From: Escherichia phage vB_EcoP_PAS59
Sequence record: OQ921332.1
Direction: 5' to 3' (one strand)
DNA: 64,000 bases
Shown here: positions 18,796-64,000 of the stretch, in pieces
Position numbering within the stretch: the first letter of the stretch is position 1
Layout: every line of letters begins with the position of its first letter
Position numbers and translations under genes: made by a program
The notes under the pieces: model-generated
What the model was told of the DNA's origin: nothing
Database searches by the model: none
What the model saw: only the letters and a program-made list of their open reading frames with translations

Positions 18796-18804
18796 TAATG
18801 TATA
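18796..18804 (+). promoter_or_regulatory. TAATGTATA promoter-like element
   Basis: Exact 9-mer, 33 bp upstream of ATG 18837. Confidence 0.4.
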
Positions 18805-25775: not shown

Positions 25776-25784
25776 TATACATTA
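25776..25784 (-). promoter_or_regulatory. TAATGTATA element in leftward orientation (no obvious target gene)
   Basis: Plus-strand TATACATTA. Confidence 0.25.
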
Positions 25785-57946: not shown

Positions 57947-60190
57947 TTATTTTCTACTACCAAGACGACGGTTAGGAATCCGTGAATCTTTGATTGAACT
58001 TTGCTGTTCTTTCTTAGTTTCATTTGCTTCTTTCTTTTGGAGTTCCAAAGTCTTATCTTGAATTTTAGCCTGATTTGCAACTTTCTCAACATCGACCTGA
58101 TGATCAAGAGTCATCTGCAATTCTTTAAGTACAGATTCATACTGACGGACCTGTTGCTGGAGTAAAGCCAACTTATGCTTAGCTTGTTCAAGTGTAGCAC
58201 TGTTATCTTCTTTACGATTCTCCAGAGTCATCTGATCAGCAGCATTCTCTTGCTTAAATTGCAGTTCTTCTTGACGTAAGCTAAACTCGTCCGCAGCTTT
58301 CTGCTGTTCAAACGTAGTACGTTCACGCTGGTCGAATGCATCAGCAATCATCTTCTGAGAAGAAGCCTGTACGTTCTCAACCTGTGCTTTAGTCATCTCA
58401 AGCTGGAGGATTTCCATCGGAGTTGGCTCAGGAGGTTGATACTGTTCCAGAGGCATCAAGTATTTGTGAGTATCTTTAATTCCCATCAACTCAAAGATCT
58501 GTGCAGTCATATAACGATCCTGTTCTAGAGTAAACAGAGGTGCTAACTGAGCATCAGCAGCAATCAATTGCTTCAGGCTAATGAGTTTCTGTGCACGTTC
58601 TGATTTCTCACTAGGAGAGATAGCTACAACAACCTGTAAGTTATGACGAGCAGGTAATTGTTTAGGGTGAACCTGAACCATACCACGAGGAGTTTGTACC
58701 TGTAAAGGAACTTCACCATTTTCTCGAACTAAATTATAAATACCACGCATCAATTCAACCATACCGTTGTGAGCAATGTTACGACAGACCATACGGAGAC
58801 GGTTCTGAGCAGCATTCATCATCAACCCAACAGTTGCATACGCGTTATCATTCTTAAACACATCAGGGTTAATACCCATACCGAGTTTAGTAACACCAGT
58901 ACGAGTTTCTTTCAATTCATCAGACATTCCCAGCAAGCCATCAATACCTTGAGGTAGATTATGGTATGGGAAGAGATCAATCGCATCCTGACGCTCCATT
59001 TCTACTACACCACCCGGACGGTTGTCTAACAAAGAACGACGGTCATACGCGCCTACAAGCGCCTTATATCGACCATAGTTAGCGTTATTTACGTTATCAA
59101 TGTAACCACGGACCAAAGCGGTACGTAAATCCTGAATATCTTTAGTAATATCATAAACCGACTGTCCATAGAATGAACCCGGAATAGGATAAGGGCAGAA
59201 AGTTACAAAAGGAATGCTAGTTACTTCCTCACAAGAGAGAATATGCTCACCTGCTTGAATGACTTGGTAGAGTTTTGATTCTTTATTCTTATCAAGTACA
59301 CCAGTACGGATATAGTGTTCATAAACCCATACCATACTTGCAATATCATCAGTATCAACACCGATATCAGCATCAGTGTCCTGTCTCCAGTCAGTACGTG
59401 ACCATGCAACAGTAGACTGAGTGGTGTCCATTGTGTCAGTCCAGTCGTTAAAAGCTTCGATTTCATCTTTAGGGAAGCCCATAGCAACCAAATCTTCTTT
59501 AGATTTACGTGTGCGATGACAGAAATATTGAGCATCTGCAAAAGAGGTAGCGTGTTCATCAACAAAGATCTGCTCTGAAGGAACATATTCTACTTTAACA
59601 CGTTTTACTGTTTGTTTGTAAGTTACTTTAACGTCCACTGTACCATCTTCATTGTCAGTGGTAAAAATTTCTAAATCTTGAAGCCCACCAGCTTCTAAAC
59701 CTTGGACATATGCAGCCAAAGCTTCCGGAGGAACACCCTCTGCTTCTTCTGTTTGAGTAGAAGTCTGTTCATCCCAATAGTATTTAATAAAAGAGTTACG
59801 TGTAACCAGACACTCTTGTGCCGCTGAAGAGATAATATTGTATCCCGGATTATCACGTAACAAAATTTGATTGACAAGTTTAGTGGCTACATCAGCAGCA
59901 TCACTATCTTCTTGGTTATCGGCTACGAAAGTTACCGCTTCGTCACCAGAACAGAACACGTTAATGATATCTTGGAGCGTACCATTCACTGATTCCCATA
60001 CCGTACGGTCTACCCAACTAGAACTACCAGCAGTAACTGGAGCAGGAAGGTTCCCATAGAAGTATTCCCAAGCCTCACGAGCATAGCCTTTTACAGCTAA
60101 GTCTACATAGCCTTGAGCATAATTGAATCGACGTTGAAGGTCAACGCGTAATTCATCCAAAACATCTTCACTAAATTTCTTCTTAGCCAT
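57947..60190 (-). CDS. portal protein (T7 gp8-like) with C-terminal coiled-coil extension
   Basis: 'FCPYPIPGSFYGQSVYD' resembles T7 gp8 'CPYIPIRMVRLDGESYGRSY'; size and position. Confidence 0.7.
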   Translation of the reverse strand: MAKKKFSEDVLDELRVDLQRRFNYAQGYVDLAVKGYAREAWEYFYGNLPAPVTAGSSSWVDRTVWESVNGTLQDIINVFCSGDEAVTFVADNQEDSDAADVATKLVNQILLRDNPGYNIISSAAQECLVTRNSFIKYYWDEQTSTQTEEAEGVPPEALAAYVQGLEAGGLQDLEIFTTDNEDGTVDVKVTYKQTVKRVKVEYVPSEQIFVDEHATSFADAQYFCHRTRKSKEDLVAMGFPKDEIEAFNDWTDTMDTTQSTVAWSRTDWRQDTDADIGVDTDDIASMVWVYEHYIRTGVLDKNKESKLYQVIQAGEHILSCEEVTSIPFVTFCPYPIPGSFYGQSVYDITKDIQDLRTALVRGYIDNVNNANYGRYKALVGAYDRRSLLDNRPGGVVEMERQDAIDLFPYHNLPQGIDGLLGMSDELKETRTGVTKLGMGINPDVFKNDNAYATVGLMMNAAQNRLRMVCRNIAHNGMVELMRGIYNLVRENGEVPLQVQTPRGMVQVHPKQLPARHNLQVVVAISPSEKSERAQKLISLKQLIAADAQLAPLFTLEQDRYMTAQIFELMGIKDTHKYLMPLEQYQPPEPTPMEILQLEMTKAQVENVQASSQKMIADAFDQRERTTFEQQKAADEFSLRQEELQFKQENAADQMTLENRKEDNSATLEQAKHKLALLQQQVRQYESVLKELQMTLDHQVDVEKVANQAKIQDKTLELQKKEANETKKEQQSSIKDSRIPNRRLGSRK

Positions 60191-60231: not shown

Positions 60232-60259
60232 GGGAGGACAAAGCCTCCCCTATTTTTAG
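60232..60259. terminator. hairpin GGGAGG...CCTCCC between terminase and portal (orientation ambiguous)
   Basis: T-run follows on the + strand, not the - strand. Confidence 0.25.
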
Positions 60260-61809
60260 TAGGTCTGATTCCATCTGTTAATATTGTCTTGATAAAGCGA
60301 TGAACTACCATAACTAGCATCATGCTTACTACGTCCACGATGTGTTACAGAACAAGCTGAATATCGCATAGCATCCATCAAGTCATCATGTTCCTTAACA
60401 ATCTTGCCAACCTTACGGTGATAGCGAGCTTTCTCTTCAAAGAGTTTAGCACACGAAGCAATGTTAAAGATTTTGAAACGACCTGACATCATACGTTCAC
60501 GAATATCAGTAATTCCTGGCTCTACAAAGAAGTTCTTCTTACCATCCATTCCAATCTTGTTGTAGAAGGTCTCACTCTGTACATTAACTCCTGCATTCTT
60601 ATAGAATTGAGCAACAGATGAACCACTTCCCTTCTCAGTGTTATCGGCATCATGAGGAAGAATCACTGGAATCCACTGACCACGACCATTAATAGCTGGT
60701 GCATGATACACTGGAGTAAACCCACCTTCTTTATAGCAGTCATAAACATAAATCGTATCAGTGTTAGCATCATATGCTGTCCAAACAGCGGCTGTCGGGT
60801 GATCAATACCAATATCAATAGCACAAACACGTTTCCACGTATCTGGTATTTCGAAAGGATCGCACTTAACCATGTCATCTGATACATCATAAATTAAACC
60901 AGAACCAAGCAACGGCATACCTTTTGAACGCATCTCTAACTGCCATGCTGGAATACCTTCAGTCATATCTTTAATATCTTGGTCAGTGATGTGTCCACCT
61001 AAATCTACGTGAGCATCCCACCAAGAAGCGTTCTGGAAATATAGAGAACCTGTGTTCTCGTCCCCTTCACCTTTCATAAATTTATCCACCAGTTCTGTTA
61101 AACCGTTCTCTGGTGTAGCTGTAATAGTAACTAAACCTTTAGTTGTAAGTGTACGTGTTACACACTGAGAGAAGATTGCCATAGATTCATATGGATCTTC
61201 TTCGTCCAGCCAAATGTAATCAACCGTAGCACCCATCAATGTATGTTCACCCTGTTGGGTAGAACGGAACTCCAGTGTACTCAGACCGTCAAACTCGCCT
61301 CTCGCGTTTTGATGCTTAATCTGTACAATCTGTAATTTGTTCCCATCTCGTTCTATTGTGTCAATGACAATAGCATCACGAGGAATAACACCTGTTCCTA
61401 TTAGATTCATATCCTTTCCGATAGGTGTTCCAAACAATTCCTTTTGCAATACCTTTCTTGTAGAGTCCCCTGTAATCCCTACTGCCCAAGCCAATATGGG
61501 TCGATTAAATCTATAACCTGTCCACCAAGTTGGATAGCGACCTGTGACATGACAAGCAAACTCGTATGCCTCGCTGTAAGATTTACCAACACGGTTAGCT
61601 GCACACAGGAATCGGAAGCGATGCTTCAACCCTGCTGCATAGAATTTCTTCTGAAAGTCATAAGCTTTAAAAGCTAACATCTTGTTATATTTTCTCCACT
61701 GGTCCCTTTCTTTTAACATATTGAGCAAAGCTTTCTTTTCCTCTATACTCAACTTGTCTCCAGTTAGAGCTTCATAAATTTCTTTATCTAACGACATATA
61801 TTCCTCCAA
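60256..61809 (-). CDS. terminase large subunit
   Basis: Walker A-like 'LCAANRVGKS', 517 aa, directly upstream of portal. Confidence 0.7.
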   Translation of the reverse strand: MEEYMSLDKEIYEALTGDKLSIEEKKALLNMLKERDQWRKYNKMLAFKAYDFQKKFYAAGLKHRFRFLCAANRVGKSYSEAYEFACHVTGRYPTWWTGYRFNRPILAWAVGITGDSTRKVLQKELFGTPIGKDMNLIGTGVIPRDAIVIDTIERDGNKLQIVQIKHQNARGEFDGLSTLEFRSTQQGEHTLMGATVDYIWLDEEDPYESMAIFSQCVTRTLTTKGLVTITATPENGLTELVDKFMKGEGDENTGSLYFQNASWWDAHVDLGGHITDQDIKDMTEGIPAWQLEMRSKGMPLLGSGLIYDVSDDMVKCDPFEIPDTWKRVCAIDIGIDHPTAAVWTAYDANTDTIYVYDCYKEGGFTPVYHAPAINGRGQWIPVILPHDADNTEKGSGSSVAQFYKNAGVNVQSETFYNKIGMDGKKNFFVEPGITDIRERMMSGRFKIFNIASCAKLFEEKARYHRKVGKIVKEHDDLMDAMRYSACSVTHRGRSKHDASYGSSSLYQDNINRWNQTY

Positions 61810-61863: not shown

Positions 61864-62331
61864 TTAACTCTCGTCCGCTTCCTCCTCCTTTTCAGCGTCC
61901 TCAGAGTCCTCTGGAGGTAGCACATCCACTTTCAGTGCACCAGTCAAGAAGTCTCGAATCTGTGCGTTCAGTGATTCTTCATTGATTACATTCTCTTCCT
62001 CAATCTTAACCTCAACAGAAGCTGCCTTAGGATATACCAGATCAGCGACTTTACTTGCAGCCTTGAATCTAAGATCAGGTGGAATATTTGGATCTTCATA
62101 AATCTGAATCAACACTTCATCAGGAGACAGATGACTAGCAGCAACACGATCGAGCATGAGCTGTGTCAATTTACCTCTACTACCTTTGGGACGTCCAAAT
62201 TTATTACCTTTAGTGAACTTCCCTGTGTTTGGCTCCATACCCTTGGATTCAAGTTCTTCCGTTACTCCGGGTAATCTTCCTGTAATCTCAGCTACCTGTG
62301 CAGGCGTGAGTTCTCCTTTTTCTCCAAACAT
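61864..62331 (-). CDS. terminase small subunit (putative)
   Basis: 'GNKFGRPKGSRGK' DNA-binding-like motif, acidic C-terminus. Confidence 0.45.
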   Translation of the reverse strand: MFGEKGELTPAQVAEITGRLPGVTEELESKGMEPNTGKFTKGNKFGRPKGSRGKLTQLMLDRVAASHLSPDEVLIQIYEDPNIPPDLRFKAASKVADLVYPKAASVEVKIEEENVINEESLNAQIRDFLTGALKVDVLPPEDSEDAEKEEEADES

Positions 62332-62396
62332 CTTATACTCCTTCTACATTATCGTTATAACAAAAAGCCTCCCACGAGAGGAGGCAACACCTTTTA

Positions 62397-62897
62397 TTAG
62401 TCTACATCACCTACGTGTAGGTTGAACAAAGTCTGGAGAGCTACAGTTTCACCTTCCCAGCCAACTGGAATAGATTTGTCATTCTCTACCTCAAAAGAAG
62501 AGGACGCCAAAATTTTTTTGTATTCTTCAAGCTCGGGGTCCAGAGCTTGTTCACTAACATGCACCCACGTAACTACTTCATTACCTTCTTCATCAATTAC
62601 TACATTACGAGACCATTGCTCTTTTGAATTTAAATAATTATTCAGAGCCTCATACTCGGCTTCTTCAATCATCTCAATCATCTCACGGGCATAATCCGGT
62701 AGGTGTGCATGTTTGTCAGCTACATACGGAACAACTTCTAAATTGGATGGACACTTACGTTTAACTTCTGTGCAAAGAATGTCCTCTGATAAAGGACGAA
62801 GGTGGTCGAGAGCTGCATACTTAATATCGCCTTTACATCCCATGTTCTCATAGATTGCATTCAGTGTAGTAGTTCCTGTCATATTGTTATTCATCAT
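62397..62897 (-). CDS. hypothetical protein
   Basis: ORF only. Confidence 0.4.
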   Translation of the reverse strand: MMNNNMTGTTTLNAIYENMGCKGDIKYAALDHLRPLSEDILCTEVKRKCPSNLEVVPYVADKHAHLPDYAREMIEMIEEAEYEALNNYLNSKEQWSRNVVIDEEGNEVVTWVHVSEQALDPELEEYKKILASSSFEVENDKSIPVGWEGETVALQTLFNLHVGDVD

Positions 62898-63204
62898 TCT
62901 CTCCTTCAGTATTTACGTTATCACTATAACGATAATCTTTAAACGTCTCAGCCTTGTAACTCACAAAGCATCTCATGTATAACCAGCCCAATGAACTAAT
63001 GTCCATCGTAGCATCAAAATCTTCATCATCGTCTAGGTCTACTAATCTACCCAAACAAGTTATTACTTCAGTGTCTCCAACTTCTTCAACTTTAAATGCA
63101 CATTTCTCAGTGCGGAAGTAAGGAAGCAGCTCTGATAAAAAGTCTAGAATCATTTTATATCTCCTCTGATAAAGGGAGTGATCAACCCATAAAGGCGTAC
63201 TCAT
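62887..63204 (-). CDS. hypothetical acidic protein
   Basis: ORF only. Confidence 0.35.
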   Translation of the reverse strand: MSTPLWVDHSLYQRRYKMILDFLSELLPYFRTEKCAFKVEEVGDTEVITCLGRLVDLDDDEDFDATMDISSLGWLYMRCFVSYKAETFKDYRYSDNVNTEGENDE

Positions 63205-63735
63205 CTAAAGGCCTACCCATGTATGAACCCATGTACGCTGATGTAAAGGGGACTCCATAAAGGCCATGTCATGTTAAGGCTTACCCATTAAGGCTTATCC
63301 ACCCATTTACTATTCCTCACCTTACCACAGTCTGCACATCTCCATGTACTCTTGTAATAAGCGTGTAATCGTTCATCACCTCTTGATATCCGGATTGGAT
63401 AGTACTCGTGATTACATTTAATCTGTCGAATAATCATCTTCAATTTCCACATAAAGTTGTTCCTCACTCTTAAATCCACAACTAACGTTGGGGCATATAG
63501 TTATATATAAGGGTTTAAAATTCTGATTTGACCGGATGGACCTAGCCTCTCCGAGCGCGTTTCCTAAAAAGGGGGAGTCCTCATTTAAAAAAGGGTTATT
63601 ACCGATGCAATTGCCTTTAGGAAAACAACCAGCCTTTAAGCCCTAAGCCCTAGCTCCCTTGCTACCAGTGGTATGCCTACCCATTAATACCCTACCCATT
63701 GATATTAGACATTGATTATCTACCCATGTATATCT
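63184..63735. repeat. dispersed CTACCCAT(G/T)-type short repeats (at least 5 copies)
   Basis: Copies near 63214, 63282, 63677, 63692, 63721. Confidence 0.45.
63288..63479 (-). CDS. small Cys-containing (zinc-ribbon-like) protein
   Basis: 'CNHEY...CADCGK'. Confidence 0.35.
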   Translation of the reverse strand: MDLRVRNNFMWKLKMIIRQIKCNHEYYPIRISRGDERLHAYYKSTWRCADCGKVRNSKWVDKP

Positions 63736-63845
63736 AACCAGTGAATACATACCCGTATTTCTCTTACTCATGTTGAGAAGGGATGAAAGGCTAGACTCTG
63801 ATGTACTGTACAGGCATACTGATAGTGACTATAATAACTGACATA

Positions 63846-63926
63846 ATAACCTATGATAACTAATGATAACCTATGTAAACTATATCAATCCTCACACTAC
63901 CCCAAGTTTAATAGTGATAACCTATG
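63846..63926 (+). repeat. direct repeats GATAACCTATG (2 exact, 1 lacking the first G, 1 degenerate)
   Basis: 63846-55, 63865-75, 63916-26. Confidence 0.5.
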
Positions 63927-64000
63927 TTAATGTTTCATGAGTGGATTATTGATGTATGTATCATTAGACTGGTATTAGTTTCTTTTATCATTCTTTTAGG

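Follow-up and report, generated by a model that had tools for sequence, protein, structure and literature searches.

One-strand NCCC(A/G)T arrays and CTAG sites around the terminal repeat at the probable concatemer junction of a phiEco32-like podophage

In phage lambda, the R sites of cosB are bound by the small terminase gpNu1, which positions the nuclease at the nearby cut site. The T7 terminase is recruited via T7's own RNA polymerase, and T7 carries arrays of short repeats (SRL and SRR) at its terminal repeats; to our knowledge, the function of these arrays has never been established. In our T7 control, the motif CCTAAAG was found on one strand only: the 160-bp repeat has three copies, the DNA immediately inside the left end has 8-11, and the DNA to the left of the right repeat has 3-5. 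T7 and the phiEco32-like phages alike are podophages with short direct terminal repeats (DTRs) that are packaged from concatemers, and the terminal repeat itself is already known for the phiEco32-like group. The 193-bp repeat of phiEco32 was defined by restriction profiling, primer walking and subcloning, that of YF01 by full-length nanopore reads, and that of Paul by PhageTerm (PMC9965538); the SU10 repeat was placed via homology to phiEco32, and a sharp drop-off of reads indicated blunt ends (PMC4281155). The SU10 authors termed the packaging mechanism of these phages unknown, and the phiEco32-like phages are without an RNA polymerase of their own (PMC4281155); thus, the polymerase-dependent recruitment of terminase in T7 cannot apply to them. 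How concatemers are cut and packaged without a phage RNA polymerase is a specialist question, for which the motif arrays and CTAG sites described below offer concrete targets for mutagenesis.

The window (the whole stretch of 64,000 nucleotides that was analysed) belongs to this group. Its last 2 kb match 95 Kuravirus-like phage records, all of them phiEco32-like podophages of E. coli or Shigella (Gordonclarkvirinae: Kuravirus and Suseptimavirus), with 91-94% identity in the best matches (Bas86-88, TH34, TH43, SU7, NC-B, and EK010), and neighbouring genes include terminase, SU10_portal and SU10_MCP matches. The late genes are on the minus strand (large terminase, 60256-61809; portal, 57947-60190), so that the left end of the genome is the minus-strand DNA preceding them; the orientation of the window is the reverse of that usual for phiEco32-like genomes. 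The order at the left end, all on the minus strand, is leader, gene 1, repeat array, small genes, putative small terminase and large terminase. At the opposite extreme, 63793-64000 closes the unique sequence on the right, upstream of the plus-strand early genes.

Two small left-end genes on the minus strand are relevant to the repeats. The first (62887-63153) bounds the left repeat array and encodes an 88-aa protein of a family without assigned function (phrog_12698, E = 1e-40); it starts with ATG at 63153, is preceded by the ribosome-binding site GAGGAGA at 63160-63166, and is annotated likewise as a 267-nt CDS in Bas87 and Bas88. The second (63288-63479) is an open reading frame for a 63-aa gene 1 homologue with a CxH...CxxC pattern (phrog_7696, E = 2e-11), annotated in Bas86, Bas87, and Bas88. 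Pfam and PHROGs searches with the neighbouring small proteins returned only families of unassigned function; the "ABC transporter" label of phrog_12176 has no Pfam support. Between gene 1 and the terminal repeat, and abutting the latter on its left, is a leader on the minus strand (63501-63543, beginning TTATATATAAGnGTTTAAAATTCTGATTTGACCG) that is strongly conserved, even in phiEco32 and 4E8, and may contain a promoter for genes 1-5; the homologous spot in 4E8 is annotated as a "promoter" by prediction only, and a sigma-70 scan reported no site in the leader. No site with at most one mismatch to the gp36-dependent promoter consensus tAATGTAtA was identified in 63184-64000, and sites of this type occur elsewhere, e.g. 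at 62343-62351, ahead of the gene for the putative small terminase. Rfam gave no structured RNA other than a chance match to mir-198 (20.6 bits vs. a gathering score of 70), and no terminators were found in the region considered here.

Alignment with the record ends and mapped DTRs of relatives predicts that 63544-63792 is one collapsed copy of a DTR of 249 bp (unstranded). At the outer boundary, the first position of the NC-B, SU7, UKE3, HC-25922, 4E8, and phiEco32 records aligns at 63792, where the window reads ...GATGAAAGGCT|AG...; at the inner boundary, record position 193 of YF01, SU10, Paul, WFI101126, and ES17 aligns at 63544. The ends of the records themselves contain terminal duplications of 250 bp (NC-B, identical at both ends), 206 bp (4E8) and 193 bp (phiEco32), and of only 53 bp in SU7, for which the authors reported the 53-bp repeat with caution (PMC8399022); among the close relatives, the full 250-bp duplication is present in NC-B only. 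Six further genomes derived from metagenomes have the same boundary sequences, and their repeat homologues measure 249 or 281 bp. No DTR length could be read from the E20-1 record, which begins within the repeat, and a scan of IMG/VR with a conserved DTR pattern recovered only phiEco32 itself and one other contig. Eight contigs that encode an identical small terminase candidate were used as additional relatives; 63000-64000 is identical in none of the eight (77-86% identity). Based on this homology, 63544-63792 is almost certainly the DTR, with the genome termini at the aligned positions. Because the window ends at 64000 and contains one copy of the DTR, we infer its duplication in the present phage.

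The alignments thus mark the predicted physical ends of the genome: the left end of the virion DNA is placed at 63792|63793, two positions that would be unjoined in the virion, and the window is read as a permuted assembly with a collapsed repeat of about 249 bp; records of Bas86-88, TH34, and others are likewise permuted or "circular". A preliminary description of this DNA had flagged 63184-63935 as a single region of iteron-like repeats, non-coding from 63480 and upstream of the late operon, and had offered a regulator, an origin, or packaging and terminal-repeat sequences as explanations. Of these, the terminal repeat is borne out by homology, both boundary alignments (63792 and 63544) falling inside the flagged region. 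The location upstream of the late operon, with its minus-strand genes, also stands. Within the flagged region, 63288-63479 codes for the 63-aa protein, and a virion end at 63792|63793 means that the flagged region is not one continuous non-coding leader. Nor do the repeats constitute one region, since they fall into three segments (an intergenic array on the left, the DTR, and unique DNA of the right end), and the core motif continues in another cluster past the end of the window.

The predicted DTR is homologous to the known Kuravirus-like DTRs of 192-193 bp (PMC9965538; PMC4281155), with both boundaries aligned, a conserved inner core, and the same location, with the small left-end genes on one side and the early-gene promoters on the other. 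The inner core (63544-63617, 74 bp, unstranded), conserved across the Kuravirus-like phages, is the most conserved part of the DTR (93% mean identity, 57 of 74 columns invariant) and the only part that matches the roughly 70 records whose DTR is 193 bp long; its published counterpart is the conserved stretch at approximately nucleotides 130-170 of the DTR (PMC9965538). It contains two CCCTTTTT(T)A repeats on the minus strand (63565-63573 and 63586-63595), i.e. the CCCTTTTTTA-10 nt-CCCTTTTT(T)A pair near the inner DTR end that corresponds to the CCCTTTTTTA repeats of SU10 (PMC4281155) and is shared with the known DTRs. Unlike the 193-bp repeats, those of the lineage of SU7, NC-B, EK010, and Bas86-88 are about 249 bp long, and some are 281 bp; the additional sequence falls within the outer half, which bears the TACCCAT units. 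The small open reading frames that have been annotated within the repeat of some relatives are probably not genuine.

The motif CTACCCAT occurs in five exact copies in the 64 kb, compared with 1.3 expected from shuffled sequences. The preliminary description had counted at least five recurrences near the right end; four of these are exact (63213, 63677, 63692, and 63720), and the site near 63282 is TTACCCAT, one mismatch from CTACCCAT. With expected counts for the plus strand of 63150-63800 taken from the rest of the window, TACCC[AG]T has six copies, all on the plus strand, vs. 0.10 expected (Poisson P ~1e-9), and ACCC[AG]T has nine plus-strand copies vs. 0.30 expected (P ~4e-11); both P values are generous since the patterns were picked after viewing the sequence. 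Neither ACCC[AG]T nor the more general NCCCRT is present on the minus strand of 63150-63800. The clustering is clearly not compositional, and repeat frequency explained by composition, which the preliminary description had named as grounds for setting the repeats aside, does not apply. Four plus-strand copies are inside the DTR and span 63678-63756: TACCCAT at 63678, 63693, and 63721, each within a copy of CTACCCAT, and TACCCGT at 63750. Their ACCCRT cores are 114, 99, 71, and 42 bp from the left terminus. Across the outer repeat in 11 genomes, 27 of 28 motif columns are invariant vs. 55 of 83 spacer columns (Fisher P = 0.001).

The remaining copies belong to a left-hand array on the plus strand (63185-63302), defined by repeat families and Tandem Repeats Finder (periods 16 and 14), that is composed of 14-16-bp units of the form T(A/T)AAGGC-N-(T)ACCCA(T) and mostly occupies the intergenic spacer between the 88-aa gene and gene 1 (63154-63287). 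It comprises CCATAAAGGC/TACCCAT units, with ACCC[AG]T at 63185, 63215, 63227, 63283, and 63301, all on the plus strand. The CCATAAAGGC-type repeats that had been reported beside the main motif are confirmed: T[AT]AAGGC occurs five times on the plus strand at 63190-63288, compared with 0.05 expected. Among 10 relatives, 26 of the 118 columns of the array are invariant, and its indels of 14-31 bp are not multiples of three, from which it follows that the array does not code for protein and that its copy number varies.

The pattern [ACT]CCC[AG]T was mapped in 13 genomes and six metagenome genomes, with the ends of linear records joined and junction-spanning records added; the genomes compared are kin, and the cross-genome counts, including those of spacings, are therefore not independent. 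Every genome that reaches past the junction has three motif clusters on one strand: one to the left, spanning about -460 to -740 bp from the junction, one in the DTR, and one to the right, spanning about +285 to +460 bp and so falling just outside the window. In the DTR cluster, every genome, phiEco32 and 4E8 included, has a core at -42 and another no more than 1 bp from -71, with further copies between about -85 and -145. Sites of NCCC(A/G)T on the opposite strand within +/-800 bp number 0-1 per genome across these 19 related genomes. Gaps between motifs concentrate at about 15 and 28-30 bp, and in TH42 a 31-bp unit that bears one extra TACCCAT has been gained. The flavour of the motif varies: close relatives favour (C/T)TACCCAT, and phiEco32 and 4E8 favour CCCCGT in all three clusters.

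Each boundary of the predicted DTR is at a CTAG. The inner site (63542-63545) reads GGCT|AG on the minus strand and is half of an inverted repeat; the outer site (63791-63794), at the predicted concatemer junction and virion left end, reads GGCT|AG on the plus strand. Both sites therefore read GGCT|AG from inside the repeat, as an inverted pair. The pair recurs in the metagenome genomes and in NC-B and phiEco32, the latter two having CT|AG at both boundaries; 4E8 deviates from GGCT|AG at the outer boundary. Cuts would probably be made at the CTAG of each boundary, on opposite strands. A single nicking specificity acting on opposite strands at the two sites could leave 5' overhangs comprising the whole repeat, and fill-in of these overhangs would give two blunt-ended copies of the repeat, consistent with the blunt ends of SU10. 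Duplication of the repeat by hairpin priming was considered and rejected, as neither DTR strand shows improved folding compared with shuffled sequence (z = 0.02 and +1.39). The three-cluster, one-strand layout of NCCCRT and the symmetric CTAG boundaries are unmentioned in the papers on phiEco32-like phages that were consulted (other than the primary phiEco32 reports); the conserved architecture and the symmetric boundaries are a modest new detail.

The NCCCRT layout resembles that of T7, in that a short motif is found on one strand inside the DTR and in both flanks (here in 19 genomes), at spacings of 12-30 bp. However, CCTAAAG and NCCCRT are not homologous motifs, and the T7 arrays abut the repeat, whereas the flanking NCCCRT clusters are 220-460 bp away. 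The position also fits that of lambda cosB, where repeated short sites are located between the cut site and the left-end terminase genes, as they would be here. This analogy is functional only, with no sequence similarity; the lambda R sites, each of 16 bp, vary in orientation, and lambda has 12-nt cohesive ends rather than a duplicated, blunt-ended repeat.

By homology, the right end of the window is very likely the concatemer junction of a phiEco32-like podophage, the point at which a collapsed assembly brings together the two ends of the virion DNA; this reading as a whole, with the NCCCRT arrays as candidate packaging sites, we consider fairly likely. That the arrays are specifically binding sites for a protein that marks the junction for maturation and packaging is the role that we favour, although we would stop short of calling it probable. 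More tentatively, the one-strand NCCC(A/G)T arrays and the GGCT|AG sites may together be an undescribed cis-acting system for the recognition and maturation of the concatemer junction in phiEco32-like phages. Early sigma-70 promoters are located at the right end and read inward (PMC8948821); thus, entry into the cell should begin, and packaging finish, with the right end, and packaging should start at the left end, beside copies of the motif. These left-end copies would be situated between the cut site and the terminase genes.

The first candidate for a protein that would bind the arrays is the putative small terminase, which is encoded 1.2 kb away. This 155-aa protein is encoded at 61864-62331, just upstream of the large terminase, and its profile has weak matches to solved small terminases (7JOQ, E = 0.022; PaP3 6W7T, E = 0.18); the same similarity at the HMM level has been reported (PMC9965538). 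A Foldseek search of the PDB with a low-confidence AlphaFold model of the candidate (pLDDT 67) gave no match, and the assignment, which derives from the profile matches, is a weak one. Phages preferring TACCCAT and phages preferring CCCCGT have versions of the candidate that are 92-98% identical, and no co-variation between protein and motif flavour was seen. Given this near-identity across motif flavours, only the common CCCRT core could be read by the protein.

Two other cis-acting roles were weighed against packaging, and we regard both as unlikely. The arrays might be iterons or other cis elements of a terminal replication origin at which a phage initiator or primase-helicase loads; the secondary origins phiOL and phiOR of T7 lie beside its terminal repeats. 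The motif copies are direct repeats in the same orientation with a regular spacing of about 15 and 28-30 bp. In relatives, the right cluster is also interleaved with GGTCTG repeats, follows a T-rich tract and is beside the early promoters, and the AT content climbs modestly to 68-74% at 63800-64000. However, no Rep- or initiator-like protein is encoded nearby, the single DnaA-box-like site represents the background rate with no enrichment, and the core of 6-8 bp is far shorter than classical iterons of 17-22 bp; in addition, one cluster is in an intergenic spacer of the late operon, which would be an odd location for an origin. It is similarly doubtful that the motifs are operators through which a phage or host transcription regulator controls the right-end early promoters and the leader of genes 1-5. 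Such operators would suit the position of the left array in the leader or spacer of an operon, and the four sigma-70 early promoters of phiEco32 are in the same non-coding stretch as the right-hand cluster (PMC8948821). There is also a sigma-70-like site (TGTACA-17-TATAAT, score 10/12) at 63807-63835 in the window, although relatives do not conserve its -10 element. Against operators, four of the most strongly conserved copies are in the outer DTR, 42-114 bp from a DNA end with no gene downstream; the motifs are unlike the gp36 promoter consensus, and searches with the small proteins encoded nearby revealed no DNA-binding domain. The location of the right-hand cluster among early promoters would suit a transcriptional or a replication role equally well.

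The third alternative, which we consider very unlikely for the NCCCRT arrays, is that the repeats have no sequence-specific function and are by-products of slippage during replication and of recombination in the loosely constrained non-coding DNA of the genome ends. Close relatives do differ in unit number and sequence in the left array and in the segment next to the junction, and the first two copies of GATAACCTATG, in the unique DNA beyond the junction, are missing from many relatives. Against this, the NCCCRT cores are conserved above their spacers, a single orientation has been kept in the 19 genomes, and the distances of -42 and about -71 have been kept in phiEco32 and 4E8 despite their diverged DTR sequence. 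It is for the GATAACCTATG tandem that this third alternative is most plausible.

The GATAACCTATG repeats are as first described, with two exact copies (63865 and 63916) and AATAACCTATG at 63845, in which the first G is replaced by A. The junction is abutted on the plus strand by a hypervariable mosaic segment (63793-63904; mean identity 64% vs. 87-93% in its flanks), which includes the sigma-70-like site and has at least five sequence variants among close relatives. Copies 1 and 2 of GATAACCTATG are part of a 10-bp tandem in this segment, ATGATAACCT x4 (63843-63882), and other lineages have different short tandem repeats at the same place; these GATAACCTATG repeats are lineage-specific short tandem repeats in variable DNA next to the right terminal repeat. 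The third copy (63916-63926) is in a conserved plus-strand block (63905-63972) with 53 of 68 columns invariant in 11 genomes, and this block is partly recognisable in 4E8 and phiEco32.

The tetranucleotide CTAG lies exactly on the two boundaries of the terminal repeat (63542-63545 and 63791-63794). When read outward from the repeat interior, either boundary has the sequence GGCT/AG (slash, boundary), which constitutes an inverted pair in the window, in the related phages NC-B and phiEco32, and in six metagenome genomes; the exception is the relative 4E8, at its outer boundary. The CTAG pair at the boundaries may represent sites of staggered nicking. The terminal 14 bp of the repeat (63779-63792) also show 86% complementarity with a stretch of the repeat interior (63631-63644) at a distance of 134 nt (sequence pair, AGCCTTTAAGCCCT / AGGGATGAAAGGCT), and single-strand folding of the repeat overall was not better than that of shuffled sequence.

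In some relatives (TH42 and genomes L024 and L028) the repeat homologue is 281 bp in length. A 31-bp insertion in TH42 carries one extra TACCCAT unit; thus, the copy number of the array varies within the terminal repeat. The repeat in the window also contains a 42-aa ORF (63643-63771, - strand), and two "hypothetical proteins" are annotated within the terminal repeat of phage BS3 (854-1243). The reading frames of these small ORFs of the window and BS3 are not conserved, and the ORFs probably represent artefacts of annotation.

On the right-end side of the junction, a segment of ~110 bp (63793-63904) has a mean identity of 64%, versus 87-93% in both flanks. Five or more variants unrelated to one another occur among relatives, and the short tandem repeats differ from variant to variant; this segment is a mosaic hotspot. 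In the related phages TH34, Bas88, and phiEco32, the right-hand cluster of the NCCC(A/G)T motif is located +285 to +460 bp from the junction, past window position 64000, where its sites alternate with GGTCTG repeats. The cluster follows a conserved T-rich tract, and a strong TTGACA-16-TATAGT promoter is located ~100-250 bp downstream; the cluster could serve as an origin, or form a portion of the early promoter region.

The promoter element of phiEco32 protein gp36 (TAATGTATA) has a match at 62343-62351 (- strand), in the upstream region of the gene for the putative small terminase. Other matches in the window are at 18796 and 25847 (+ strand) and at 25776, 36477, and 54930 (- strand), and several of the matches agree with published promoter positions. 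No gp36-type promoter precedes genes 1-5 in the window.

A further mosaic point is the gene at 62397-63050 (phrog_12176), the N-terminal part of which varies in length among genomes (166 aa in the window versus 217-272 aa elsewhere). In relatives this gene is called "ABC transporter", a label that Pfam did not support and that is probably wrong. Immediately beside the genome end, gene 1 (63288-63479, - strand) encodes a 63-aa product with a CxH...CxxC pattern that is retained in 4E8 and Bas88; this product may be a small zinc-binding protein.
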